A stretch of 64,000 bases of DNA from Bdellovibrionales bacterium. Lineage in GTDB: Bacteria > Bdellovibrionota > Bdellovibrionia > Bdellovibrionales > Bdellovibrionaceae. The stretch lies in NCBI GenBank assembly GCA_031370005.1, contig JANMPT010000110.1:1-64000 (forward strand), given 5' to 3'. Of this stretch, positions 1 through 18,766 are shown piece after piece. The notes below the pieces were generated by a model. It saw nothing but the letters and a program-made list of their open reading frames with translations. It ran no database searches and was not told where the DNA came from. The number at the start of each line of letters is the position of its first letter. Position 1 is the first letter of the stretch. The position numbers and the translations under genes were made by a program.

Positions 1-1
1 C

Positions 2-214
2 ACTAAAGCCTATCGCGGAAGCAAGCTCTCCACTCCCTTTTGGCAGGGCTTAGCCTTTACCAGGGTATTAAAAAGCTCTTTTGAAGAGATGCAGCTTAAA
101 GGCTATTTTCAGGCCAATCGCGAGCAGGCTGAGAGGGGCTACATTGCTCGGCAAGAGTATTTAGATAGATTCAACCGCTGGGTTTATCGACTGCGGGTAC
201 AGGATTACTTCTGA
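2..214 (+). CDS. 3' end of a hypothetical protein (truncated by window start)
   Basis: Frame open from base 2 to TGA at 212-214 (TKAYRGSK...RVQDYF), translated by hand; no family recognised. Confidence 0.6.
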   Translation, partial: TKAYRGSKLSTPFWQGLAFTRVLKSSFEEMQLKGYFQANREQAERGYIARQEYLDRFNRWVYRLRVQDYF

Positions 215-295
215 AGACGGAGCGCTGATGTCCAAAAGTTCTTTATTACAGCCCTAAAAACCGGGTTTGCCTCTGGCTGCCGGCCAAGTTATGCT

Positions 296-754
296 TTGGC
301 AATGATAGAAATCATTATTTATGGGCTTTTATTTATTCTTGGTTTAGGACTTATTAGCTTTCGACCCATTGAGAAAACCACCGGAATTTCTCCTTATTGG
401 GAGATCGGTTTTGGTTCCCTTTTAGTGGTCTTTTTTGCCATTACAGTAACCTCAAATTTTGTAATGGAACCCATGAACGAAGAGGAGCTCGCAAAAAAGC
501 CCTGTGGTGCGAGCAGCCCTCAAGGCAGCTGCTACAGTATTGAGTATTCCTTGTGTGAAATTGCTTGGCAGAGAGCCGAAAGTCACTGCAAGTCAGAAAT
601 GGCGCAGGTTATGAGAGATCGCCCTTCTGCCCTTATCGGGCCCACATTAAGTCGTTGCCGCGCTAAGCAGATGGATCAAGCGCTTAGATATAATCGCACG
701 AATACGGATAGTGCTTACTGTAAGTCTTATTTCGAGCACATTGACAAGAGGTAA
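296..754 (+). CDS. hypothetical membrane protein, two N-terminal TM helices and Cys-rich exported domain
   Basis: Two hydrophobic segments then six spaced Cys; start may be ATG at 302. Confidence 0.7.
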   Translation: MAMIEIIIYGLLFILGLGLISFRPIEKTTGISPYWEIGFGSLLVVFFAITVTSNFVMEPMNEEELAKKPCGASSPQGSCYSIEYSLCEIAWQRAESHCKSEMAQVMRDRPSALIGPTLSRCRAKQMDQALRYNRTNTDSAYCKSYFEHIDKR

Positions 755-856
755 TGGTCGATTGATGAACAGAGTCGCTGGGCCTAAGTCGCAGTTTTCG
801 GTTACCTAGGTGAACGGACCTTTGCGGAAGACCTGAGCGGGCACTATCCTGATAGT

Positions 857-1522
857 ATGAAAAAGACCCCTCAATTGCGAAACCTTCTTTTTTCTTATGA
901 GACAACACTTTCTGAGGAAGAGTTTCAAAGTTTTGAACGAGAGGTTAATCGTCTACTGAATCATTATTCAGAAATTTTAAATTCTTATCGTGCCGGGGCT
1001 GAGCGAGCGCAGGTGGCTCAGGCACTGATTGATGAACAAGTAGAAATGAATTCTCATATCAAAACTAGTTGCCAAAAAGGATGCGGAGCTTGTTGTCATC
1101 TTGAGGTCGAAATCACTGAAGATGACGCGGACTTGTTAGCATATTCTATTCGCAATCAAAACTTGGTAATTGATGAAAAGCGCCTCCAGGAGTTGGCACA
1201 AAGAACGCGTTTAGACAAAAAATGGTCAGAGGGAGCAGTGTCTTCTAACCGTTGTATTTTGCTAGGTGCTGATAATGCCTGTAGCAACTACGCAAATCGC
1301 CCTTCAGTTTGCCGGAAACACTCAGTTACAACTCCTGCCGCCAATTGCTCCACTCTGGGAGCCTCGCCGGTCCCACTGCTGATTCCTATGAACGAAATCA
1401 TTCTCAGTGCGGCCCTTAATCAGCCAGGAAATGGGTTTGGATCACTGCCGAAAATGCTCGAAGCCGCGCTAATAAGAATCCGCGAAGCGGGAAGCCCCGT
1501 GGAGAGTGCGGATCTATTTTAA
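857..1522 (+). CDS. YkgJ-family Cys-cluster (CxxxCxxCC) Fe-S/zinc-chelating protein
   Basis: [10 protein letters not shown]...CILL...[12 protein letters not shown] motif set. Confidence 0.85.
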
Positions 1523-2499
1523 CGATTCACGCTACTCATATCAGGGTAACGGCTTCCAGAGGTGACTCCTTTGGTAAACTCATGATTCAGCAGGGCTAGA
1601 TCTTTTTGCGTTAATTTAATTTCTGCAGCCTTGGCGTTTTCTTCAAGGCGAGATCGAGACTTTGTGCCGGGGATTGGAACAATATCGTCGCCTTGTGCAA
1701 GGACCCAAGCTAGCGCAAGCTGTGCAGTGGTGATTTTTTTTTCATGGGCAAGATCCTCGATATGCAAAACAAGCTGCATGTTTTTTTTAAAGTTTTCACC
1801 CTGAAAACGGGGATTGTTTTTGCGATAGTCGCCTTCAGGAATGTCTGCTTCAGTTTTAAATCGCCCAGTCAGAAAACCTCGACCTAGCGGGCTATAGGGG
1901 ACAAAGCCGATGCCGAGCTCGCGCACAGTTTTAAGAAGCTCTTCTTCGGGCTCGCGACTCCACAGCGAATACTCTGTTTGGAGAGCAGTTATTGGGTGGA
2001 TTTTATGAGCTTTGCGAATGGTTGCCGGCGCGGCTTCAGAAAGACCAAGATAGCGAACTTTACCTTCTTTAACAAGTTCTGACATCGCTTGAACAGTTTC
2101 CTCGATGGGAGTATTTGGGTCCACGCGATGCTGATAATAAAGATCAATCTGGTTCACTTTGAGCCTTTTCAGAGAATCTTCGCAGCACTTTTTTACATAT
2201 TCTGGTTTACCATTAACTCCAAGAAATTTTCCGTCTGGCGAGCGCATATTCCCAAACTTCGTTGCAATTACGAATTGGTCACGTTTTCCTTCGATAGCTT
2301 TGGCGAGTAACATCTCATTGGTGAAAGGCCCATACATATCAGCAGTATCAAGGAAATTGATTCCCAAATCTAAAGCATGGTGGATGGTAGCAATGGATTC
2401 TGCTTCATCACGCCCAGCGTAGAAGTCGGACATTCCCATGCAGCCGAGTCCCATACGAGAAACCTGCAGACCTTGGCTTCCCAATTTTACTTTTTTCAT
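1519..2499 (-). CDS. aldo/keto reductase (AKR13-like)
   Basis: [40 protein letters not shown] overlap with upstream fusion gene. Confidence 0.95.
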
Positions 2500-5400
2500 T
2501 TGAAACTCCTTGTTTTTGAAAATGCTTTGATACGGTTAATGCCTCCATCAGGATGGATCATCACTCGAATCTGTGAAAATTTTGCTGATGTTTTAACATC
2601 GAAAATAATCTTATTGCCAGCATAGTTTTTGACATTAATTTTATCAACCAATCTTGTCCAACCACCGTCTTCAAGCCCTTGAATTGATACCTCAAAGGGA
2701 TTGTTATTCACAAAATAAGTAAAATCAAGTTCGAGTCGTGCGAGAGAGGATTGCTTGCCAAGAGCTATGATTACCTCCTCAAAGTGTTCTTTGGCACGAC
2801 TTCGTGCAGACTCCATTCCATCAAACATATGAAGAGGAGGAAAAGGTGAAATCACCTGGGCCGCAGGGCCATAGTGCTCATTTGTTGCGCTGACGATAGT
2901 TCCGCCAAAGGCCGAGCTTGCTAGGTCGACTTCAGATCCGGGTTTGAGGCTCTCCCAGTTTTTTTTGATATTGAATTCCGTGGCATCGTATTTCGGCGTC
3001 AAGGGACGAATTGTCTGTGGAATGACATCGGTAAAGACGATGCTCTTTGCTTGATCCGCTGGGAGGTATTTGGCCTTCTCCGCTGTGGGTAGAGTCTCGT
3101 CATATAGTCCAAGGCGTGACAGCCCGCCATCAGGATAGAGAGATACTTTTACTTGGCTAAAGACTGCTGTGCCAGTGGTTGTTTTTATCGCTTTAAAGGC
3201 ATGACCTTGTAGCGCTGTTTTATCAAGGATGTCCTGCCAATTTTTAGTTTCAGAATTAAGACCTTCGATGCGAAGAAATTGTGCTTGATTGCCAAGATGG
3301 TATTTTGTTGAGATTCCAATATAGTGGATGCTGCTGGGTTTTTTTAATTTAAAAATCAATTCATCACAGGGCTTTTGATTGTGACGAACGCTTTCCCAGC
3401 TATCCATGATTTTACCCTGACGCCCAAATAGGCCAGGGTTAAAAGCGGGCAAGTGAGGCGAGAGAAGATTTTCTGCTCTCGCAAAGAGTTGATTGGTCAC
3501 CTCAAGAATTTCACCACCCACGGCTAAATTATAAGAAGCTAAAGGATCCAGAGGCCCTTTTTCTTTAATTTCTTCAGGTAAATCAGGTTGAAAGGCGCCA
3601 AAGATCAGATCGCGGTAGCCAATATTGACCACCTCTTGCTGTGGAATTTTACCGTAGGCAAAGTTTTTCCTAAAAAAATTAGTATCTATGCCTTCCATTT
3701 GAAACTCTGCAAGAATGGTTTGAGCTACGTCTGCAATGAAAAAAACGCCGTTGAGTTCAGCATTGCAAAGAATAGTAAATCCCAAACCTGCAGAGGGGCC
3801 ATTAAAGCAATGTACGAACAAGCAACGGAAGCCATCGTTTGCACCTTGATGAATGGCAAGACGATTCGGTCCTGCTTCTGCGATAAAAATACCAAGGCCC
3901 ATTTTTGTTCCCATGAATTCTTTGCAGCCACGATCCGTACCAGAAAGCATTTGCACAGCAGTGTCATGAGAGATTGCTCCTGCTTCTTCCTGGATGTGGA
4001 AAGCTTTGGTCAGACTTCCGAGGAAACGTGACATGTCGGCGGCAGTTCCCATGGCCCCAGCGGCCAAGGCTGGAAACATCTTGCGAGTGCCGGGGATTTT
4101 CTCACCAGTGGCAAGATAGCCATGGGCATATTCAATATTTGGTAAAGTTTTTTGCTCAAAGGAAAAGTCTTTAAGATTCAATTGGTCTAAGAATGGTTTT
4201 ACAAGGGCTTGAATTGTTTTTTTCTCAAGACTTTCTAAAAGATGCTCAAGAACTAGATAGCCACCTCCAGAGTATTGGAATATTGTGCCAGGCTCATTGA
4301 TAACACCAACAGATGGCAGAAGTTCTCTGAGCTCTGGCATCACTTGATTGGCAGGTGTGCCAAGAACGTAGTGCATATTCAGTGCACTGTGATTCATTAA
4401 TTGCGCGAGAGTAACCTGATCGCCCCACTGAGGGTTTGCGAGATCTAAGGATTTGACACGATAGTGAGACGTGGTCCTGGCGAAGATTGAATTAACCGAA
4501 GAGGTCAGAGCAATATTGGCATTGCGAAAATATTCAATGGCAAAGCAAGTTGCCACAGTTTTACTGAGCGAGGCCATCTCAAACCACGTATGAGCAGTCG
4601 CATTTCCAAAAGCCAAGTTTTGCTGTGAGTTTGGGCCTGATGTAATACTCACTTGTGCTGCATTGACTTGGTGCTTGCGAAGTGCTGCATCAATATTTTC
4701 CTGCAGATAATTCAGAGGCTGAGCCTGAAATCGCTTTTGAGTGATTTCCCAGAGGGCCAGGCGGGCATTCTGAAGCTCTTGAGAGCTGTTATTTTCAATT
4801 CTTGCAGAGAGCGCGGCTTGAAGCTCTTTGCCAGATTTACCTTGTGCAGAAATTAAAAATTTCATCCCAAATTTATCACGATAAAGCCTGCCGAGGCGGG
4901 CGAGTTCAGCTGTTAGTTGATTGTTAATAGTAGCGTCCTCTTTGAATACGAGGGCCTGCTCTTGTACAGCCATAGGGTCCAGAGTTTTTTTGTTTTCACC
5001 GATATCACCGTGGAAGCTTGCAGCGTCAAGCACATCGCTGAGCGTAAATTTTTTAATTATTTGCTCGGCTTGTTTTGTATCCATAATTATATTTTTGGCC
5101 ATGAGGCTTGCAAATGAAAGACTTCCACAAATTGAGAAGTAGTAATTGAAGCGCGCAATCGGCGCTTTCATTTGATATTTTTTTGGCTCAATTGCAATGA
5201 TGGCTGCCCAAGGATTTTCATTGTTGCGGATAGAGTCTATTGTGAATGCTAAAAGCAACTCAGTAGCAAATTCAACAGGCTTATCGCTTGTCATTAAGAG
5301 AATCATTAAATTCAATGCAATTGGATACCATTTCTCAGTTCGCTCATCCCATTTTACTTGGACAATTTTTTTGGAATTCGACAAGTCTTTACGAATAAAA

Positions 5401-7199
5401 TGAAGTTCCTCATGGGCGATTCTTAGGAAGTCTTCTAGGGGAAAACGACCATGATGAAGCTCGTGCCAGACTTCCCAGCGGGAGCGCTCAGCAGTTGCTA
5501 AATCATCCATCACCCGAGCTGGAATGCCATCAATTAGAGTGGGCAAGGCCACGCAGCCATTCCCCGAAAGCCAATCCGTGAGGTATTGTAAAGATTGGAA
5601 AACATTATAACGAATTTCTTCTGGATCATTATTGGCGATATAAGTGGACTCTTTGATATCTGCCACTAGCAGAGAGCGCTGATAAAGAGGGTTGGAAGTA
5701 TCAAGCCCCACCAAGTCGGGACCATTGATAAAATTCATAATTTCTTGATGATATTTTTTATCTAAAAGAGAGGTTACTAGAGTTTCTAGTTTCGTTTTGT
5801 CAGAATTTTGGTGGAAGCTCCATGCTTCGACAAGTGCAAGGCCCAGGCGAATGAAGTCAGGATGGGCAACCCAAAAGCCGGAAAGGTTTCTTTTTAGTTG
5901 AGTAATTACGTCCTTGATAAATCCTTTCATTGTCACCTGAAAGGAAGCACTTGAAAGCTCAGAATCAATTGGTAGAATGCCATACATGCCACCAATTTTA
6001 ATTCCCCCACGAGAGCCGACCACCTCGGCAAGTAAGTCATGGGAGCCTTTAATATACTTTATGACGATATCAGGATCTGCCTTTACCGGTATGCGATAGT
6101 TTGCGTCTTCTTTAAAAAGACGCGCAGTGGAGCCCAGGTAGTCATGCCATCCAAGAGAGGCCCCCGCAAAGTAAGGGTAGAGCTCGTCCATAATTTCATT
6201 TACACGAAAAACTGCACGGGGATTTTCAAGTACGATCAGCAGACGTATAGAGCCTATCCTATATTCTGGATGCGCTTTGCAGATCATTTTTTCTGCGGTC
6301 TCTATCATAATACGGATGTAGCGGGCCTCTTCTTCGGTTTCGAGTTTTGGTACGTAAAAAGCCAAGGCTTCAATGTTTTGCCAACTTGCAAATAGATGAA
6401 GCGCGAAATCATAAAGATGAAGCGGCAAAGGATTGTTTCGATAGAAAAGGAAAGGACATGGCAGAGCTATCCCTGGAAAGCGCTTTACCGGAAGGGCGAG
6501 GTGATCTTTTTCAAGTTTGTATTCTTTTTTGGTTTTTGGATCGGAGAAAGCGATTTTTTTTTCAAAACATTGAGTGAGGTTTTCACCGGCAGAAATAAGG
6601 TCTTGCCGTAAAGGAGTTTTTGAGTCCTCATCATCGGCTCCCCACTTTGGAGAGCTTGTGTGGGTATTAAGCAATTCTGCGATGATGGCTGGCTCATCTT
6701 TGAGTTTGCGATGATAAGCATTCATTGCATTGATAGAGAGTTTGGCATCATCCGGTGGGCCAAAGAGAGTGACATGATAGCCTTGCAAGAAGTCTGGAAT
6801 CTTTGCAATAGGGGCCCCGCCGCCGGCTTTGCAATAGAGCATGTTCTTAGGGCCAATCACAATTCTTCCAGCAGCATCCTCCTGGCCGATGAGTGTCTGG
6901 TAGCGCTCATCTAGGAAGTCAACTCCAAGAGATTTATTTAGTTCGTAGCATGCTCGAGTTCTTTGATCGATAAATTTTCGGTCGGCGATTCGCTGCTCAA
7001 GTACTTTGTTTAATTCGTTTTTAACGGCATCATAAAGATCACACAAAAACTGCAAGGATTCAGTGGTCTCTAGTCCGCCTAAATTGCCAATATGAATGAG
7101 GTCTGGAATCTCAGGAGCGGGTTTTCCCTCCGACATCAGCTGTTTGAGAAAACTCGCAGAGATATAGTCTTGGTAGTAAGGAATTTCTTTTTGAGTCAT
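2496..7199 (-). CDS. multifunctional fusion: malate synthase (aa ~40-655) + OHCU decarboxylase (~684-826) + beta-lactamase-fold serine hydrolase (~830-1165) + allantoicase, two repeats (~1222-1562)
   Basis: Malate synthase: [52 protein letters not shown] decarboxylase: [26 protein letters not shown]. Serine hydrolase: SLSK, YSG, HQG. Allantoicase: MDSWES / [19 protein letters not shown] / HPDGGINRI. Confidence 0.88.
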
Positions 7200-7220
7200 C
7201 AGCTTTTTGGCAGTTACTGC

Positions 7221-7544
7221 CTAACTTCCTTTGTAGGTTGAATATCCAAATGGGTTTAGTAAAAGGGGGACGTGATACTTACGCCCAATGTCGACAACTT
7301 TAAAAACCACCTGTACATTCATGAAAAAAAAATCTCGTCCCTTTTTTTTGAAATATTCTTCGATTTCAAAAATGATTTGATAGGTGCCTGGTGCCTTTTC
7401 ACAATCAAAAATGAACCGGCCATCGGCATTGGTATTTCCCTTGGCGAGATCTCTCCACGTATTGCCATCTTTTTTTAAAAGTTTCACCAAGACGGATTCG
7501 GCAGGGGAGCCAAGGCTTGTATCTAAGATGTGGGTGCTTATCAT
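7221..7544 (-). CDS. uraH: 5-hydroxyisourate hydrolase (transthyretin-like)
   Basis: ISTHILDTS, TNADGR, YHVPLLLNPFGYSTYKGS. Confidence 0.95.
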   Translation of the reverse strand: MISTHILDTSLGSPAESVLVKLLKKDGNTWRDLAKGNTNADGRFIFDCEKAPGTYQIIFEIEEYFKKKGRDFFFMNVQVVFKVVDIGRKYHVPLLLNPFGYSTYKGS

Positions 7545-7558
7545 TTTGTTTCCTTCAA

Positions 7559-9190
7559 TTATTGCGTTTGTTTTGTCTTAAACTCAAATACCAAGTTCAG
7601 CTTGCCATTTGCCGCCACATCAACCTCTTTGGTTTGAGTCCCAAAGATCTCATGCCATAGTTCGAGGCTATAATGTCCTGGGGGGAGGTTCTTAATGCTG
7701 AACTGTCCCTTATCGTCAGTGATGCTGTAGTATGGATTGTCCATCACGGCAATGTAAGCGCTCATCCAAGGATGTACGCTGCATTTTGTCTGCACAAAAA
7801 TTTCAGGTTTATCAAAGATCTTTGTGATGCGGTCGTTTTTATTAGGCATAGCTATGTTGAAGATTTCATTATTTTTGGTGATAGATCGAACATTATGAAA
7901 AAGTGCATCGCTATTTACAAACTCTACTTTTTGGCCTACACGGCTGGCGCTAATTCTTGGCTCATACAAACAACCAATCTGATCAATAATCACAGGCTCA
8001 GTGGGAACATCTGTAAAGTGTTTCCCTTCAAGGCCTTTTGAGACGCGCACAAGAGCATTCTTCAGCAGTCCATTGTTGACGATAAGCTCATTGGAGTAGG
8101 CATCTCCTTTGTAGTGTGTCGCGCAGGCAAAGGGTAAAAGAAGTTTTTCTGCTTGAGGCACTGGGCCTTCAAATTTTACAATTCCGTTCACTTCGCTAAC
8201 TGTGCCCACCGCATCAGTGGAAGCGGGGATAATGGGCTTTGGCGTTTCAAGTTGAGTTTCCTGAGTCACCGCTGAATTGACCACATTTTCACGAGTAAAG
8301 ATCATCACGCCTAAAATCAAGAAAATACCAATGGCGGCAAAGACTTTGGAGCGAGTTGGATTCTTAATGCGAACCACAAAGAACTCGCGAATAGCAGCCC
8401 CCGCAGCGCTTATCAACAGCAGGATCAACCAATTCCACCGATTTCCATAAGTGGAGGAAAAGTGATTGCTTAGCATGATGAAGATAACAGGTAAGGTGAA
8501 ATAGGTATTGTGCGTGGATCTGTTCTTGGCGTTTTTTGCCCAGTCTTGATTAAGGGCCTCGCCTTTTTTTGCTGCTTCCACCATTTTAACTTGGCGAGGA
8601 ATGATTCGCAAAAAAACATTGGCTGTCATCCAAGTTCCAAGCATTGCACCGATATGCATGTAAGCTGCCCGGCCACTTAAGGTGTGACAAAGAAAGTAGG
8701 ACATTCCGGCAAACCAGAGCAGGGTCAGTGCGTGACCAATGAGGGGCGTATCTTTTGTTAGTTTTGTCTCCCAAAGGTAGTCATAAAAAATCCAAGAGAC
8801 AATAATTGAGCCTACACCGATTCCCACTGCTTGCCAGTACGTAACACCTGAGACTGAAGAGTCTAATAAAAAGGTTCCACCGCCAGTATAGAAGATCGCA
8901 AGCAGCAAGAAGGTTCCACTCATCCAAGTCCAATAGGACTCCCATTTAAACCAGTGAAGCTGCTCTGGGACTTTTATCGGGCCCATTTGCAATTTTTCGA
9001 CATGATAAAAGCCGCCACCATGAACCATCCAAAGATCACCCACATGGCCTGGTTTTGTAGAACTGGAGTTAAATTCAAAAGTCCGATCCAGCCACATAAA
9101 GAAAATTGAGGCTCCAATCCAAGCTATGGCAACAGTGATATGGAGCCAACGAACCAGCAGGAGTATCCACTCATATATTTCTTGATTCAC
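7559..9190 (-). CDS. puuD: PuuD-family integral-membrane urate hydroxylase/oxidase with C-terminal cupredoxin-like + carboxypeptidase-regulatory-like domain
   Basis: RWLHI..AIAWIGAS, LWMVHGGGFY, LHWFKWESYWTWMSG, RSTHNTYFTLPV, SNH; C-terminus has HNV...CSVHPWM and no CxxCH. Confidence 0.9.
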   Translation of the reverse strand: MNQEIYEWILLLVRWLHITVAIAWIGASIFFMWLDRTFEFNSSSTKPGHVGDLWMVHGGGFYHVEKLQMGPIKVPEQLHWFKWESYWTWMSGTFLLLAIFYTGGGTFLLDSSVSGVTYWQAVGIGVGSIIVSWIFYDYLWETKLTKDTPLIGHALTLLWFAGMSYFLCHTLSGRAAYMHIGAMLGTWMTANVFLRIIPRQVKMVEAAKKGEALNQDWAKNAKNRSTHNTYFTLPVIFIMLSNHFSSTYGNRWNWLILLLISAAGAAIREFFVVRIKNPTRSKVFAAIGIFLILGVMIFTRENVVNSAVTQETQLETPKPIIPASTDAVGTVSEVNGIVKFEGPVPQAEKLLLPFACATHYKGDAYSNELIVNNGLLKNALVRVSKGLEGKHFTDVPTEPVIIDQIGCLYEPRISASRVGQKVEFVNSDALFHNVRSITKNNEIFNIAMPNKNDRITKIFDKPEIFVQTKCSVHPWMSAYIAVMDNPYYSITDDKGQFSIKNLPPGHYSLELWHEIFGTQTKEVDVAANGKLNLVFEFKTKQTQ

Positions 9191-9399
9191 AGTAGGACCT
9201 TTTTAGGCAAAGAGGTGAACTGAGATTAAAGCATTTTGTAAGTGAAAAACCAACTTTTTTGGTTTACGGCTACCTTCAAATCTAGGTGCAGAAGACCCTC
9301 AGCGTTAATGGGGTGAGTTTGTGATTAATAAAAAACCAAACGCCTTGAGAATGCTTCCTCGCTTGCTGCTTTTGATGTAGGCTACTGTTCAAATGGGGG

Positions 9400-9681
9400 T
9401 TGTTAATGAGAGCGTCCACTAGATTTAGCCCTGATCCACTTGATTACGCCTTGATTGATTTTCGAGATGAGAAGACTTCATTTTCTCCAAGTGCCATTGG
9501 ATTAATTCTGAATGAGTCCTATACTGGTTGTTCGCTTGCGATTAAAACCAAGGAGAATATTATTCCCAATAAGAATCTGCGGATTCAAGTGGGTAAGCTG
9601 GGCGTGATGTCTGCTAAAGTCGTTTGGGTGAAAGTTCTTGACGAGACTCTTGTTCAGGTCGGAGTTCAGTTTTTAGATTAG
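9400..9681 (+). CDS. stand-alone PilZ-like domain protein
   Basis: RxxxR (RASTR), NESYTG, VVW...VGVQF beta-barrel pattern. Confidence 0.7.
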   Translation: MLMRASTRFSPDPLDYALIDFRDEKTSFSPSAIGLILNESYTGCSLAIKTKENIIPNKNLRIQVGKLGVMSAKVVWVKVLDETLVQVGVQFLD

Positions 9682-9709
9682 TGTTCTGCGAACAACATCG
9701 CGTATCGAT

Positions 9710-10468
9710 TCAAACAGCTGGTTCTTTTTGCATCGACTGATTCCAGACTTGAAAATAGATCATTGTCCAAAATAATATTCCCGAGGTAAGCACTGGAATT
9801 AAAAAGGCTCCGTGTCCAAAGCGTCCAAAGGCAAAACCACCAACGACTGATCCGAACCCAAAGAAAAAAATAATCCCCACTCTCATCAAACTTGCTTTTT
9901 TTTCGTTCTCTACATGATCATTTAGTTTACGGTGATTGAAAAGACGGACAAGGCCGATCCCAAGATCTGTCGTTATTCCAGTCAAATGTGTGGTGCGAAT
10001 GACAGATTTAGAAACTGTGGTAATTGTACCATTTTGAATCCCACATATAAAACAGAGTAAAATTAGCAAGGTATAATCCTGTGAGGACTCCAGTGGCTCA
10101 CCAAAGCGGCCCAGACGGCCAAGCATTCCGGCTATCGCCACAAATAAAGTAAGAAAAAAAATAATACCGAAGGTGATGTAGTATTTGGGTTTTATATGGA
10201 GCTTTAGACGAATATCTACAAGCTGACCACTTAGCATCGCGCCGAGAAGAAAAAATAAAGGCACGACAAGCATTCCTAAAGCATGCCGCGGCTCCTCTTT
10301 GCTTAAATCATAGCCGAAGAAGGTGGCAAAGCCAGTTATATGAGAAACAAAACGATGGCAGGCCATAAATCCACCAATATTTATAAGACCAGCCTGAAAT
10401 GCCATGAGCATCCAGATAGAGATATTACTTTTTGTATAATGGGAAATAGATGCATTACCGTAGAGCAT
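9710..10468 (-). CDS. YoaK/DUF1275 family membrane protein
   Basis: FVSHITG, GIQNG, RTTHLTGITTDLG; start reassigned to ATG at 10468. Confidence 0.9.
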   Translation of the reverse strand: MLYGNASISHYTKSNISIWMLMAFQAGLINIGGFMACHRFVSHITGFATFFGYDLSKEEPRHALGMLVVPLFFLLGAMLSGQLVDIRLKLHIKPKYYITFGIIFFLTLFVAIAGMLGRLGRFGEPLESSQDYTLLILLCFICGIQNGTITTVSKSVIRTTHLTGITTDLGIGLVRLFNHRKLNDHVENEKKASLMRVGIIFFFGFGSVVGGFAFGRFGHGAFLIPVLTSGILFWTMIYFQVWNQSMQKEPAV

Positions 10469-10547
10469 GGTTATACCTTTAATATAAATCATACCCGGAT
10501 TTATATTAAAGGCGCAATCGGTTGTATGGGCTGACCAGACCTTTAGT

Positions 10548-11525
10548 TCAGAGGGTCTCCGATTCTGGAATGAAAAAGTCACTTCGTCGACCTTCGACTC
10601 TTTCTTTTCTTATATCTGCATTGGGTCCGAAGGGGTGGCCGCCAAAGCCATTTCGCATGACCGCGATGGCCTTGGCCCACTCTTGATTTTTGTCTCGTGA
10701 AGCAAAAAGCTGCATGACGGCCAAACTGATTATAGGTATGGGAACTTCCATATGCAGAGCATCTGAGATCAACCAGTTGACCTCGCCGGTATCCTCCACA
10801 TAAGCAGGTATGCCCTGCTGAGTTTTTGCCCAGCCCTCGCCCAACAATTGAATCAGCCAGGATCTGATGACTGAGCCATGATTCCAACAATTTAAAATTT
10901 CTTGTATTGGCAGTTGATCCTGACCCCGGAACTTTTCAAGAAGATTCACGCCTTCACCTATAGCTTGTAGCATTCCAAATTCGATTCCGTTATGTACAAG
11001 TTTTGTAAAATGGCCTGATCCCGTAGATCCAGTATAGACATAGCCACCGGTGACGGCCAAGTCGCGAAGTAGGGGCTCTATCAGTTGTACGGCCGCCAGG
11101 GGGCCACCGACCATAAAACATGCGCCTTCGCGGGCTCCAGAGACTCCGCCGCTTGTTCCCAAATCTACGAAATTAATGCCGAATGCTTTGAGTCGAGTCG
11201 CCCGGGACACAGAGTCCCCCCAGTAGGAGTTTCCACCATCTACTATCACGTCACCTGCTTCAAGTAATGGGGTCAGTTGCTCAATCAACTGGTCAACAGC
11301 CTTGCCGGCAGGGATGTATAGAAAAAGGACGCGTGGTGGCTTTAGGTTTTGGCAGAGCTCTCCAAGGCTTTTTCTCTCCTGAAGGCCAGCTTGAGTCAGT
11401 TCCGCAGAGATTCCGTCTAGGGTAAATCCAGTCACCTTCCAGTTTTTTCTCATCGCTTGTAGTGCCAACCCACCGCCCATGCGACCGAGTCCGACAACAC
11501 CAAATTCAGTTAATGTTTTTGTCAT
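10548..11525 (-). CDS. gnd: 6-phosphogluconate dehydrogenase, decarboxylating (short YqeC/GntZ type)
   Basis: GLGRMG, DGGNS, GTSGG, GSGHFTKLVHNGIEFG, DTGE, RNGFGGH. Confidence 0.92.
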   Translation of the reverse strand: MTKTLTEFGVVGLGRMGGGLALQAMRKNWKVTGFTLDGISAELTQAGLQERKSLGELCQNLKPPRVLFLYIPAGKAVDQLIEQLTPLLEAGDVIVDGGNSYWGDSVSRATRLKAFGINFVDLGTSGGVSGAREGACFMVGGPLAAVQLIEPLLRDLAVTGGYVYTGSTGSGHFTKLVHNGIEFGMLQAIGEGVNLLEKFRGQDQLPIQEILNCWNHGSVIRSWLIQLLGEGWAKTQQGIPAYVEDTGEVNWLISDALHMEVPIPIISLAVMQLFASRDKNQEWAKAIAVMRNGFGGHPFGPNADIRKERVEGRRSDFFIPESETL

Positions 11526-11592
11526 ATGTTTCTCCTTTATTGTTTTTTTGTCGTTTGCATTTTTTTATTTTCAGTCCTAGTAATAAAGATCT

Positions 11593-11979
11593 ATGAAGAC
11601 AGGTATTGGTTCTAAAGTATGGGCTATTGCTGAAGGTTATATTCCTACATATAGTCAGGGGCCTCAGCCTGAGATGTTGAGTCATGAAACAGCCTGTATT
11701 TTGAATACAAATGACGAAGAGGCTCAGATCGAATTGACTTTGTATTTTAAGGATAGCGAGCCTATAGGCCCCTATAAAATATCGGTACCTGCGCGACGTA
11801 CTTTGCATCTGCGTTTTAATGATCTTAAGGAGCCAGCGGTGGTTCCCTTGGGAACAGATTATTCCAGTGTTTTTACTTCGAATATCCCTGTTGTAATTCA
11901 ACACACGAGATTGGATTCTCGCCAACCTGCCAATGCGCTGCTCAGTACGATCGCCTACTCGGTATCCCATTCTAGTTAG
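11593..11979 (+). CDS. Anabaena sensory rhodopsin transducer (ASRT)-family protein
   Basis: IG.K.WAIAEGYIP, SHETACILN, VPARRTLH, PVVIQHTRLDSRQ. Confidence 0.9.
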   Translation: MKTGIGSKVWAIAEGYIPTYSQGPQPEMLSHETACILNTNDEEAQIELTLYFKDSEPIGPYKISVPARRTLHLRFNDLKEPAVVPLGTDYSSVFTSNIPVVIQHTRLDSRQPANALLSTIAYSVSHSS

Positions 11980-12773
11980 CCCTGTTTCAGAAAACTGGAG
12001 TAAAGCGTCATGCCGCCGTCGATAAAAAGACTTATCCCTGTGATGTAGCGAGCCTCATCAGAAACTAAATAAGAAACAGCCCCTGCCACTTCTTCAGGTG
12101 TTCCTATGCGCTGTTCTGGAATTTTATCCAGAACCACTTTTTTTATAGCTGGCTTATGGATCCATGAATCATTGATAGGTGTTGAAATGGCACCTGGAGC
12201 TATGTTGTTTACACGGATATTCAGTGAAGCAAGTTCTAGGGCCATGGTTTTGGTGAGCATCATAATCCCGCTTTTTGAAGCGCAATAGTGAGCATAGCCA
12301 CCCCAGGGAATTGTCTCGTGGACCGAGGAAATATTAATGATCACACCTGTTTTTCTCTTTGCCATCATCTGAGCTGCAGCGCGTGCGCAGAGGAAGCTGC
12401 CGCGGAGATTGGTATTGATGACAAGATCCCAATCCTTGGTTTTCATTTTTAAAATGGGAGCTTTGCTTTCAAGTCCAGCGTTGTTTACTAGAATATCTAA
12501 ACGTTTTTGGTCACTAGTAATTTTTTGAAACATTTTTTTAATGTCTGACTCTTTGCTAATATCAGCACGAATAGGAATTCCTAAGCCACCTTTGGCTTGA
12601 ATTTGTGCGGCGAGAGATTTTGCCTTACTTGCTTGCCCGCGATAGTTGATATAAACGATGGCGCCTTCAGAGGCCAGGCGTTGTGCAATGGCTTTGCCTA
12701 TTCCGGAGCTGGCTCCGGTGACTAAGGCTACTCGATTTGTCAAAGAACCTAGAGTAGAATTTTGCATTTTCAT
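11976..12773 (-). CDS. glucose 1-dehydrogenase-like SDR oxidoreductase
   Basis: TGASSGIG, NNAG, SSVHETIPW, YCASK, PGAISTPIN. Confidence 0.88.
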   Translation of the reverse strand: MKMQNSTLGSLTNRVALVTGASSGIGKAIAQRLASEGAIVYINYRGQASKAKSLAAQIQAKGGLGIPIRADISKESDIKKMFQKITSDQKRLDILVNNAGLESKAPILKMKTKDWDLVINTNLRGSFLCARAAAQMMAKRKTGVIINISSVHETIPWGGYAHYCASKSGIMMLTKTMALELASLNIRVNNIAPGAISTPINDSWIHKPAIKKVVLDKIPEQRIGTPEEVAGAVSYLVSDEARYITGISLFIDGGMTLYSSFLKQG

Positions 12774-18037: not shown

Positions 18038-18766
18038 TCACTTCACGGCGTTGATCAAAGCGCCACCTTTAAGCATATCAACTATTTTATCTCGCAAGTT
18101 CAAGGTCACCGCTGGGCATCCCCAGCTGCGGCCTTGAATGAGGTCTGCTTCTGCGACGTAGCTTGCCCCATGGATTACAATCGCGCGGCTGCGAGCATTT
18201 GAGTTCGTCGATGATTTGCCATCAAGTCGTAAGGACAAGCCATGGTCACCGTAGTAGGTTTCAGCCGTCATATAGAAACCTAAAGAACTTGCGTTGGAAC
18301 CAGCGGCATTACTGAATTTTTTAGCATAACCGTCATGGTTGCTATCAGAGCCCTTTCCGTGAGCCACATGAATGGCTTGAACAGCTCCGGTTTTCATATC
18401 AACAATATAAAAACGTTTTTCTTTCGAGTTCTGAGCAAAGTTAATCACAGCAATATAATTTTTATTATCAAGACTGGATTTGTTTTGCTCGAAGTACACA
18501 ACGGTGTCAGCCAAGGCTTTACTTGGAACAATTTTATTTGGATCAAGGTAGTCATATTTCGCAAGAATGGCTTCGCGCTCTGTCTGGCTGGGCTCTGGTA
18601 AGGTCGGTGCCGTCGTGTTCCTGTTCTCTTTGTCGGGGAGTCCGTTCGTTGGTTGTTCTCGGGAAGGATCATCGTTTAACCTCGGAGTATCAAAGGTGTT
18701 GCCACATGCTGTAAGGCTGAACATCGTACAAAAAACCATAACTTCCTTTGATAATTTTCGTAACAT
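18038..18766 (-). CDS. murein L,D-transpeptidase catalytic domain lipoprotein (YkuD_2)
   Basis: Lipobox LTAC, VAHGKGS, SSLGFY, IVIHGASY, GRSWGCPA. Confidence 0.92.
   Translation of the reverse strand: MLRKLSKEVMVFCTMFSLTACGNTFDTPRLNDDPSREQPTNGLPDKENRNTTAPTLPEPSQTEREAILAKYDYLDPNKIVPSKALADTVVYFEQNKSSLDNKNYIAVINFAQNSKEKRFYIVDMKTGAVQAIHVAHGKGSDSNHDGYAKKFSNAAGSNASSLGFYMTAETYYGDHGLSLRLDGKSSTNSNARSRAIVIHGASYVAEADLIQGRSWGCPAVTLNLRDKIVDMLKGGALINAVK

Follow-up and report, generated by a model that had tools for sequence, protein, structure and literature searches.

We conclude that puuD, uraH and a gene for a four-part fusion protein form a unit that is conserved across predatory Bdellovibrio-like bacteria, and we propose, at a probability of about 60%, that the unit converts urate to glyoxylate, two urea and CO2. 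In this proposal, which is drawn from sequence, one part of the fusion protein, a domain of predicted beta-lactamase fold (BLA), would serve as allantoinase, and another, a domain of the malate synthase superfamily (MSL), would serve as ureidoglycolate lyase. Urate breakdown is textbook biochemistry, with its missing genes identified one after another, and predatory bacteria live on prey nucleic acids. The genes lie in a stretch of 64,000 nucleotides from a Bdellovibrionales bacterium (contig JANMPT010000110.1, positions 1 to 64,000), referred to here as the window (Table 1).

The pathway would begin with urate supplied by a xanthine-dehydrogenase-family enzyme encoded on another contig. The membrane urate oxidase, judged by its family membership, would make 5-hydroxyisourate, which UraH would hydrolyse to OHCU, and the OHCU decarboxylase domain of the fusion would convert this to (S)-allantoin. 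The next reaction, opening of the allantoin ring, likely falls to the BLA domain, standing in for AllB or PuuE. The allantoicase domain would then release urea and ureidoglycolate, the latter a likely substrate of the MSL domain, which would split it into glyoxylate and urea and so replace AllA. No recognisable enzyme of the organism's own genome uses the urea.

Table 1. Features of the urate locus, in coordinates of the window
Feature	Position	Strand	Size or residues	Assignment
puuD	7559-9190	minus	543 aa	PF06181
Urate_ox_N domain of puuD	8297-9178	minus	aa 5-298	PF06181 355.2 bits, profile positions 3-293 of 295
Type-1-copper (cupredoxin)-like domain of puuD	7748-7969	minus	about aa 408-481	match to 5fc9_A
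CarboxypepD_reg-like beta-sandwich of puuD	7565-7756	minus	aa 479-542	PF13620 33.3 bits
uraH	7221-7544	minus	107 aa	TIGR02962
Fusion gene	2496-7199	minus	1567 aa	four parts: MSL, OHCU decarboxylase, BLA, allantoicase
MSL domain (fusion part 1)	5175-7199	minus	about aa 1-675	PF01274 66.3 bits, PF20659 38 bits
OHCU decarboxylase domain (fusion part 2)	4722-5162	minus	about aa 680-826	PF09349 63.9 bits
BLA domain (fusion part 3)	3555-4712	minus	about aa 830-1215	PF00144 84.9 bits
Allantoicase, two repeats (fusion part 4)	2499-3536	minus	about aa 1222-1567	PF03561 173.8 bits
AKR gene	1519-2499	minus	326 aa	PF00248
Non-coding stretch upstream of puuD	9191-9709	minus	519 bp	likely promoter region

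The genes are co-oriented and closely packed, and the layout given in the initial annotation agrees exactly with the ORF coordinates. By these coordinates, there are 14 bp between puuD and uraH (7545-7558), 21 bp between uraH and the fusion gene (7200-7220), and a 4-bp overlap (2496-2499) between the fusion gene, whose stop codon is at 2496-2498, and the AKR gene. The order puuD-uraH-fusion is tight in 27 of 29 loci of relatives, and of 74 fused loci at least 53 have it in tight form. Because it recurs in this way, the arrangement is not due to chance, and the conserved unit comprises three genes, not four. Beyond the module, each other neighbour family is common to at most 10 of the 36 loci with full flanks, and xdhABC adjoins the fusion gene in about 8-10 of 36 relatives. 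From the gene spacing and the conservation, we infer that the module is co-transcribed.

The AKR gene had been listed among the co-oriented genes, and we reject it as a fourth pathway gene. In one set of 29 related loci it follows the fusion gene once, and in another of 80 not at all; it is thus a local, lineage-specific passenger. Its product matches PF00248 (274.8 bits), and the best named match, to a YdjG-type methylglyoxal reductase, reaches 190 bits and stays under 550. The window starts at base 1 of the contig, so only 1.5 kb lies beyond this gene.

The stretch upstream of puuD is likely its promoter region. A promoter-like site at 9588-9559 (9 of 12 matches) is near chance level, and a scan for promoters and terminators gave counts near the shuffled expectation. 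Nothing in positions 1-12000 matched Rfam above chance, and no known RNA, riboswitch or other, was found upstream of puuD; the sole match, to an lncRNA, was at chance level (E 0.9). Among the window ORFs up to position 18,766 there is neither a transporter nor a regulator, in line with the claim made for the whole window. These ORFs include one for a DUF1275 protein, whose role is not known.

The first enzyme of the unit departs from the described form of PuuD. That form has an N-terminal DUF989/Urate_ox_N membrane domain of eight helices and, at its C-terminus, a cytochrome c domain that carries a CxxCH motif and a distal Met (PMC4562309). The membrane domain is present in the window's PuuD, which starts at a GTG codon; the cytochrome c domain is not, and there is no CxxCH haem motif in the 543-aa sequence. 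The C-terminal part instead aligns with the blue copper protein 5fc9_A at E 2.1e-6, HN and CSxHPW motifs included. This points to a copper domain rather than a cytochrome as the electron-transfer domain of PuuD, and to a third PuuD design. The second gene, uraH, encodes a 5-hydroxyisourate hydrolase (TIGR02962 120.9 bits, above the cut-off of 87.45; PF00576 111.8 bits).

The fusion protein is widespread among relatives. At E<=1e-3, 642 of 7,991 scored candidates are related to it, and the best 120 of these 642, with identities of 57-79%, all contain the five Pfam families of the fusion, two of which belong to malate synthase. Of 400 other genomes sampled in the phylum, 60 have the protein in fused or split form. 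The OHCU decarboxylase domain exceeds the PF09349 threshold (63.9 bits against 24) over profile positions 40-155 only, and falls below that of TIGR03180 (68.7 bits against 139.4). Its H730, G731, I733, G734 and R823, which make up an H-G-x-I-G motif and a C-terminal Arg, are invariant in 25 fusions. PF03561 matches the allantoicase part over two stretches, and both repeats were found on contig C67; against TIGR02961, this part scores 188.2 bits, below the full-length cut-off of 277.9. Our literature searches found no publication on the fusion and nothing on point about urate catabolism in Bdellovibrio.

The MSL part appears more likely to cleave ureidoglycolate than to synthesize malate. Against the malate synthase A model TIGR01344 it scores 129.3 bits, far below the cut-off of 594.5, and MSL sequences reach 65-94 bits with PF01274, compared with 210-371 bits for canonical malate synthases. 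MSL keeps 61 of the 142 columns that are invariant in canonical enzymes. The 81 changed columns include R276W and W277H beside a Mg ligand and R168P and H171A beside the catalytic Arg (E. coli malate synthase A numbering, in which we take Arg166 and Asp447 to be catalytic and Glu250 and Asp278 to be Mg ligands), and R276 is replaced by Trp in 36 of 36 MSL sequences. In a tree of bacterial canonical and MSL sequences only, MSL forms a separate clade on a very long branch. The initial annotation suggested that three genes may lead from urate to malate. A conserved unit with nearly every step from urate down does stand, whereas malate as its product had been taken from the Pfam name, with which the model score and the changed columns fit poorly.

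The company that MSL keeps suggests which step it performs. Allantoicase is present in 95 of 401 sampled genomes, and 94 of these 95, counted with related genomes that are not independent, have exactly one of MSL (61), DUF6986 (29) and AllA (4). None has two of the three, and the single genome with none is 74% complete. The link between MSL and allantoicase arises by construction, because the MSL group was defined from matches to the whole fusion; the mutual exclusivity of MSL with AllA and DUF6986 does not. Switches between the three occur inside single genera (g91, g107 and g157). AllA (PF04115) and DUF6986 (PF22484) resemble MSL in accompanying allantoicase in genomes of the phylum, and their folds differ. 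DUF6986 and MSL show a faint similarity around two metal ligands (hhalign probability 5.4%), and we found no publication naming the DUF6986 family. A canonical malate synthase is present alongside MSL in 21 of 60 genomes and alongside AllA in all five genomes tested. In Desulfobacterota, a stand-alone MSL occurs among genes for PuuE, hydantoin racemase, ureidoglycine aminohydrolase and allantoate amidohydrolase. That leaves the lyase as the sole unassigned step in the cluster, and none of the 4 genomes there has AllA.

There is a eukaryotic precedent for such an enzyme. According to one report (PMC10120013), the zebrafish malate synthase-like protein, DrMSL, acts as an (S)-ureidoglycolate lyase and has no malate synthase activity, a sea-anemone malate synthase has no lyase activity, and the UGL group holds only eukaryotic sequences. 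Judged by the published description of the zebrafish protein (PMC10120013), DrMSL and the bacterial MSL both belong to the malate synthase superfamily, are tied to allantoicase, have Arg276 replaced and carry an insertion close to the loop that separates the glyoxylate site from the catalytic Asp (8 aa in bacterial MSL, 2 aa in the DrMSL report). They differ in the replacing residue (Trp in bacterial MSL, Ile in DrMSL) and in W365 (kept in bacterial MSL, Met in DrMSL). In addition, the bacterial domain is about 675-690 aa long and fused. A look-up of related clusters (Atlas) returned only further bacterial "putative malate synthase" clusters, and a literature search for a bacterial lyase of this kind found nothing on point. 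Because MSL shares its slot with AllA and has this precedent, the earlier assumption that allantoicase or spontaneous decay yields glyoxylate from ureidoglycolate is probably unnecessary.

The rest of the genome bears on where the products could go. We searched all 3.21 Mb of it (99.79% complete). AllA and the urease alpha subunit are absent genome-wide, in line with the initial annotation, which had seen no ureidoglycolate lyase or urease in the window; its remark that the window lacks xanthine dehydrogenase also holds, the sole family member lying outside the window on contig C70. The genome search that the annotation had called for thus recovers a gene of the xdh family and neither allA, urease nor isocitrate lyase. 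AllB and PuuE were likewise not found in the whole genome; the AllB candidate is a dihydroorotase (700.5 bits, above 482). A guanine deaminase match proved to be imidazolonepropionase, and the genome has no NCS2 nucleobase permease. The genome-wide search for urea carboxylase returned biotin carboxylases only, and that for isocitrate lyase returned the methylisocitrate lyase PrpB, in a prpDBC cluster. For glyoxylate carboligase the match was far below the cut-off, and there is no second malate synthase besides MSL. This near-complete genome, with neither urease nor urea carboxylase, encodes no known route for recovering nitrogen from urea, and the suggestion that the pathway serves carbon or energy rather than nitrogen is plausible. 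With neither glyoxylate carboligase nor isocitrate lyase present, the fate of free glyoxylate is unaccounted for, save for a class-V aminotransferase and a 2-hydroxyacid dehydrogenase that are unlinked to the module. This pair may simply serve serine synthesis.

These absences are among the reasons to consider that MSL is a true malate synthase after all, that ureidoglycolate is split by allantoicase or decays spontaneously, and that the three genes carry urate to malate as carbon salvage. MSL retains every residue that can be mapped as catalytic in malate synthase (R166, E250, D278, W365 and D447), which is a point against the lyase reading. All 36 of the 36 MSL sequences share R166, D447, E250, D278 and the W-x-A-H-P loop, and all of them, unlike the zebrafish protein, also keep W365. 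Another such point is that 39 of 60 other fusion genomes, as well as the organism's own, have no other malate synthase. Because its own genome also has neither glyoxylate carboligase nor isocitrate lyase, MSL is the only recognisable glyoxylate consumer there. The absence of urease and urea carboxylase fits carbon salvage, and in yeast the allantoin cluster includes a malate synthase gene, DAL7. Nevertheless, we consider a true malate synthase unlikely, given the low TIGR01344 score, the changed columns and the long branch. MSL is exclusive with AllA and yet occurs beside a canonical malate synthase in 21 of 60 genomes, and the Desulfobacterota MSL lies in a ureide cluster without an allantoicase that could do double duty.

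MSL could also do both, cleaving ureidoglycolate and condensing the bound glyoxylate with acetyl-CoA to give malate, with no free glyoxylate. This would fit both the AllA-type slot and the retained catalytic set, as well as the lack of any other glyoxylate consumer in the organism's own genome and the presence of canonical malate synthase in 5 of 5 AllA genomes tested against 21 of 60 MSL genomes. We regard it as quite unlikely. Such an enzyme would be without precedent, the zebrafish and sea-anemone proteins each having one activity and not the other (PMC10120013). Moreover, in genome G270 a class-V aminotransferase gene adjoins MSL, which suggests that free glyoxylate is converted to glycine.

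Returning to cleavage of allantoin, we propose that BLA likely replaces the allantoinase AllB or PuuE. The structure model (pLDDT 92.4) places BLA in the class C beta-lactamase/DD-peptidase fold, with TM scores of 0.64-0.69 to esterase IS11, R61 DD-peptidase, LACTB and AmpC. The S-x-x-K, Tyr and (K/H)-x-G motifs that, with the fold, mark this superfamily are all found, as S877-L-S-K880, Y976-S-G (with Gly where class C enzymes carry Asn) and H1117-Q-G, and are invariant in 25 fusions. PuuE exceeds its cut-off in 0 of 71 genomes. Of the 11 genomes that have a stand-alone allantoicase and no fusion, 9 have AllB above its cut-off, each time adjoining the allantoicase gene, as against one of the 60 other fusion genomes. 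The same phylum also contains an unfused cluster, MFS-PuuD-AllB-allantoicase-OHCU decarboxylase-UraH-DUF6986, that corresponds to the module gene for domain. The one exceptional fusion genome, G270, holds both BLA and AllB, and a strict rule of one or the other, never both, was rejected; it has a second, canonical allantoicase set besides the fusion, and its AllB is fused to OHCU decarboxylase. We know of no enzyme of beta-lactamase fold for allantoin hydrolysis, and a literature search found nothing on point. The initial annotation left the allantoinase step unnamed; it is probably carried out by the BLA domain.

It is highly improbable that BLA has an unrelated or accessory role (as peptidase, esterase or in ureido-group hydrolysis), with allantoin opened elsewhere by an unrecognised enzyme and the three genes short of the full route: its nearest solved structures are indeed esterases, DD-peptidases and beta-lactamases at 15-20% identity, and G270 carries AllB as well, but every fusion has BLA between the OHCU decarboxylase and allantoicase parts, AllB and PuuE are both absent from 59 of 60 other fusion genomes and from the organism's own, AllB takes the matching position in unfused clusters, and the AllB of G270 is itself fused to OHCU decarboxylase.

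The module points to replacement by non-homologous enzymes at two more steps, those of allantoinase and ureidoglycolate lyase, and to a third PuuD design, all within a compact unit that is widely conserved in predatory bacteria. The same slot logic marks DUF6986 as a candidate lyase of other bacteria. The most far-reaching version would be a self-contained line from urate to malate, made up of three enzymes of kinds not yet described: a copper-domain PuuD, a serine allantoinase of beta-lactamase fold that would form a third class of allantoinase, and a dual-function MSL releasing no free glyoxylate, with DUF6986 as a further, unrecognised enzyme for the same slot; we think this rather improbable. 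The database names "malate synthase" and "serine hydrolase" would mislead metabolic reconstruction of the host organisms, and the module offers directly testable candidates in one protein.

The module shares the pathway logic of the Agrobacterium puuD cluster (PMC4562309) and of the unfused cluster of the same phylum (genomes G070 and G004). The families of the PF06181 membrane urate oxidase, HIU hydrolase and allantoicase, and probably that of OHCU decarboxylase, are common to puu/all clusters and the window module. In contrast to those clusters, the window unit contains no transporter, regulator or xdh and no AllB/PuuE or AllA. BLA is predicted to act at the step of AllB (a metal amidohydrolase, TIGR03178) and PuuE (of polysaccharide deacetylase fold, TIGR03212) and takes their place in pathway and gene order; its distribution is complementary to that of AllB. 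Its fold and chemistry are unrelated to theirs, the fold being that of class C beta-lactamases and DD-peptidases and the predicted nucleophile a serine. The window's PuuD ends in a copper domain and a beta-sandwich instead of cytochrome c, and, unlike the puu/all clusters, the module joins four activities in one protein of 1567 aa.

puuD, uraH and the fusion gene form a real, conserved module that is a variant form of a known pathway. The fusion joins a malate-synthase-like domain (MSL), an OHCU decarboxylase, a beta-lactamase-fold serine hydrolase domain (BLA) and an allantoicase. The spacing described in the initial annotation, gaps of 14 and 21 bp and a 4-bp overlap between the fusion and an aldo-keto reductase gene (AKR), is borne out by the ORF list. 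The window shares its first base with a contig of 184 kb, which ends ~1.5 kb beyond AKR; the genome amounts to 3.21 Mb and is rated 99.79% complete. A CxxCxxCC-domain gene is convergent to AKR, with a 4-bp overlap of their 3' ends. A 519-bp gap precedes puuD, and upstream of it are genes for a membrane protein (DUF1275) and a 6-phosphogluconate dehydrogenase of the short type; loci of relatives gave no sign that either is tied to the module. No Rfam family scored above chance in positions 1-12000, and a promoter/terminator scan was uninformative.

Features in the window and in loci of relatives (L numbers)
Feature	Position	Strand	Length and assignment
puuD	7559-9190	minus	ORF 543 aa; PF06181 membrane domain, 355.2 bits
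puuD, copper-like domain and beta-sandwich	within 7565-7969	minus	within aa 408-542
uraH, HIU hydrolase	7221-7544	minus	ORF 107 aa; TIGR02962, 120.9 bits (cut-off 87.45)
Fusion	2496-7199	minus	ORF 1567 aa; four parts by Pfam/NCBIfam
Fusion, MSL		minus	PF01274, 66.3 bits; PF20659, 38 bits
Fusion, OHCU decarboxylase		minus	PF09349, 63.9 bits
Fusion, BLA (beta-lactamase-family serine hydrolase)		minus	PF00144, 84.9 bits
Fusion, allantoicase (two repeats)		minus	PF03561, 173.8 bits
AKR	1519-2499	minus	ORF 326 aa; PF00248, 274.8 bits
CxxCxxCC-domain gene	857-1522	plus	PF03692
DUF1275 membrane protein	9710-10582	minus	
6-phosphogluconate dehydrogenase	10548-11525	minus	NF007161, 334 bits (cut-off 271)
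Example xdh/nuclease neighbours	L057:15354-17768, L060:6480-7940, L081:14583-15365, L108:14632-15708		
AllB-OHCU decarboxylase fusion, genome G270	L142:7383-9236		617 aa
BLA-allantoicase protein, genome G270	L140:2303-4621		772 aa
DUF6986, genomes G070 and G004	L143:8657-10039, L144:8588-9937		PF22484, 587-589 bits
Desulfobacterota ureide clusters	L058:3532-14163, L067:6831-14968		

When 7,991 candidate homologues of the fusion were scored, 642 proteins reached E<=1e-3. Identity is 57-79% for the top 120 of these 642, and each has all five Pfam families of the fusion, two of which are malate synthase families; their named sources are Bdellovibrio, Bacteriovorax, Oligoflexia and a few planctomycete bins, and their usual database name is 'serine hydrolase'. 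A fused or split form is found in 61 of 401 genomes sampled from the phylum, the present one included. In 27 of 29 relatives' loci, the fusion is immediately preceded by puuD and uraH in the order found here; one of the 29 (L035) has ~780 bp between uraH and the fusion, and another (L034) has a divergent puuD downstream on the other strand. Among 80 loci from named genomes (74 fused forms, four stand-alone MSL genes and two cut by a contig end), the tight order is present in at least 53 of the 74 fused loci, with median spacers of 11 and 8 bp as measured by tblastn. Based on spacing and conservation, we infer that the three genes are probably co-transcribed.

AKR is co-oriented with these genes here, but it lies behind the fusion in just one of the 29 loci (same genus) and in none of the 80, and is therefore outside the conserved unit. 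No other neighbor family is common to more than 10 of the 36 loci with full 10-kb flanks; the earlier description of three genes was right and the word minimal was fair. The commonest extra neighbors are xdhC, xdhB and xdhA (8-10 of the 36, mostly convergent and downstream), such that xanthine dehydrogenase is kept next door in about a quarter of relatives, and an S1/P1 nuclease is beside the fusion in four of the 36. These neighbors are compatible with use of prey nucleic acids. In some genomes (e.g., G372, contig C19, and G107, contig C32), the fusion is split at about residue 740, inside the OHCU decarboxylase part, into two adjacent ORFs, which may reflect a genuine division of the gene, a frameshift or faulty assembly. 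Outside Bdellovibrionota, the fusion is found in Planctomycetota bins (L063, L068, L076 and L077), with uraH divergent and no puuD within 10 kb.

Family searches across the whole genome found no second malate synthase, PuuE (a known allantoinase) or NCS2 nucleobase permease, and the best match to glyoxylate carboligase (192 bits) was below the cut-off of 711. Of the genes for which the initial annotation proposed a genome search, allA (AllA is the known ureidoglycolate lyase) and urease (alpha subunit) are absent, as is aceA: the isocitrate lyase match is PrpB, within a prpD-prpB-prpC cluster (TIGR02317, 440.7 bits; cut-off 354.4). As for xdh, contig C70 encodes a three-subunit xanthine-dehydrogenase-family enzyme, XdhC (TIGR02964, 213.9 bits; cut-off 161.6) and a MocA-like protein, but the subunits score below equivalog cut-offs. 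Given this enzyme, urate is probably produced within the cell. Other candidates were rejected: the sole match to AllB, also a known allantoinase, is a dihydroorotase (NF006559, 700.5 bits; cut-off 482), the urea carboxylase matches are biotin carboxylases and nothing else, and the TIGR02967 guanine deaminase match is imidazolonepropionase.

BLA is likely the allantoinase, and would open allantoin to allantoate in place of AllB or PuuE. It is positioned between the allantoin-making OHCU decarboxylase and the allantoate-requiring allantoicase, and its motifs S-x-x-K, Y-S-G and H-Q-G are invariant across 25 diverse fusions. Its confident AlphaFold model (pLDDT 92.4) is similar to esterase IS11, R61 DD-peptidase, LACTB, AmpC and D-amino-acid amidase (TM 0.64-0.69, 15-20% identity). 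Among 71 genomes tested, none has PuuE above cut-off and 10 have AllB. Of the 11 genomes whose allantoicase stands alone, nine belong to these 10, and the AllB gene adjoins allantoicase in all nine; a tenth of the 11 has a truncated AllB copy adjoining allantoicase. AllB occurs in only one of the 60 other fusion genomes, G270. This genome encodes an AllB-OHCU decarboxylase fusion, a second, canonical allantoicase, two stand-alone MSL genes and a two-domain BLA-allantoicase protein adjoining PuuD, two class-V aminotransferases and a stand-alone MSL. We read these as two systems in one genome. In the unfused clusters of G070 and G004 (MFS-PuuD-AllB-allantoicase-OHCU decarboxylase-UraH-DUF6986, then xdhC, xdhB, xdhA), AllB takes the place held by BLA in the fusion.

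Genomic context favors a lyase role for MSL, which would cleave ureidoglycolate to glyoxylate and urea in place of AllA; we put the probability that it is a lyase only at about 0.45. Four Desulfobacterota genomes have a stand-alone MSL inside a ureide cluster. Jointly, these clusters hold an ABC transporter, PuuE (529.5 bits; cut-off 424.6), hydantoin racemase, ureidoglycine aminohydrolase (332.8 bits; cut-off 200), allantoate amidohydrolase (471 bits; cut-off 452) and a GntR regulator. Only ureidoglycolate cleavage has no gene assigned to it, and none of the four genomes has AllA. In L058, PuuE, the transporter and the racemase are upstream of MSL; L067 has the transporter, both hydrolases and the regulator. 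MSL in these two loci is stand-alone (688-703 aa) with no urate oxidase gene nearby, and the hosts are anaerobes. In the phylum sample, allantoicase is found in 95 of the 401 genomes, AllA in six and DUF6986 (an uncharacterised family) in 41. All but one of the 95 have exactly one of MSL (61), DUF6986 (29) or AllA (4), and none has two; the genome with none of the three is 74% complete. The type switches inside genera g91, g107 and g157, and thus this is not one inherited pattern.

DUF6986 is the last gene of the unfused clusters. It never occurs with MSL in the 401 genomes and, with one exception, is exclusive with AllA too. Its position and exclusivity make it a candidate ureidoglycolate lyase.

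MSL might instead be a malate synthase only, which we consider unlikely. It retains the catalytic set of malate synthase, no other malate synthase is present in this genome or in 39 of the 60 other fusion genomes, and the searches here gave no evident enzyme to consume free glyoxylate: the sole candidate is an unlinked pair, an aminotransferase with a 2-hydroxyacid dehydrogenase, whose role may be in serine synthesis. However, a canonical malate synthase is present alongside MSL in 21 of the 60, as it is alongside AllA in five of five genomes tested. Possession of both activities, which the same observations would allow, seems somewhat less probable still, and the rest of the odds falls to other or unresolved outcomes. 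Glyoxylate and urea are the best-supported predicted end point of urate breakdown by the module; malate, proposed earlier as the end point, is possible but less well supported.

In full-text searches of the literature, no paper turned up on the fusion, a bacterial MS-like lyase, a beta-lactamase-fold allantoinase, urate catabolism in Bdellovibrio or DUF6986. The accessible text of a 2026 review on urate-catabolic fusions has HIUase-OHCU decarboxylase fusions only. The PuuD paper, in its accessible part, describes a cytochrome c in all full-length members (PMC4562309). In contrast, PuuD here has no CxxCH motif; its C-terminal part resembles 5fc9_A, a type-1 copper protein (E 2.1e-6), and the ligand positions His and Cys-x-x-His-x-x-Met align; a CarboxypepD_reg-like beta-sandwich comes next. 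This copper-type architecture is also seen in the unfused relatives, and PuuD of G270 has a faint haem-domain match.

We compared 36 MSL sequences with 11 canonical enzymes, using the numbering of E. coli malate synthase A. MSL keeps R166, E250, D278, W365 and D447, has the substitutions R276W, W277H, R168P and H171A and eight extra residues ahead of the catalytic Asp, and preserves 61 of 142 canonical-invariant columns in at least 90% of the 36 sequences. A very long branch divides it from the canonical enzymes (SH-aLRT 100 in a quick tree). According to the portion of PMC10120013 accessible to us, an MS-like protein of zebrafish acts on (S)-ureidoglycolate as a lyase and lacks malate synthase activity; its marks are R276I, W365M, an insertion of 2 aa and an acetyl-CoA site that is not conserved, and its lyase group is eukaryotic only. 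Like that enzyme, as described there, the bacterial MSL lacks R276, yet it keeps W365.
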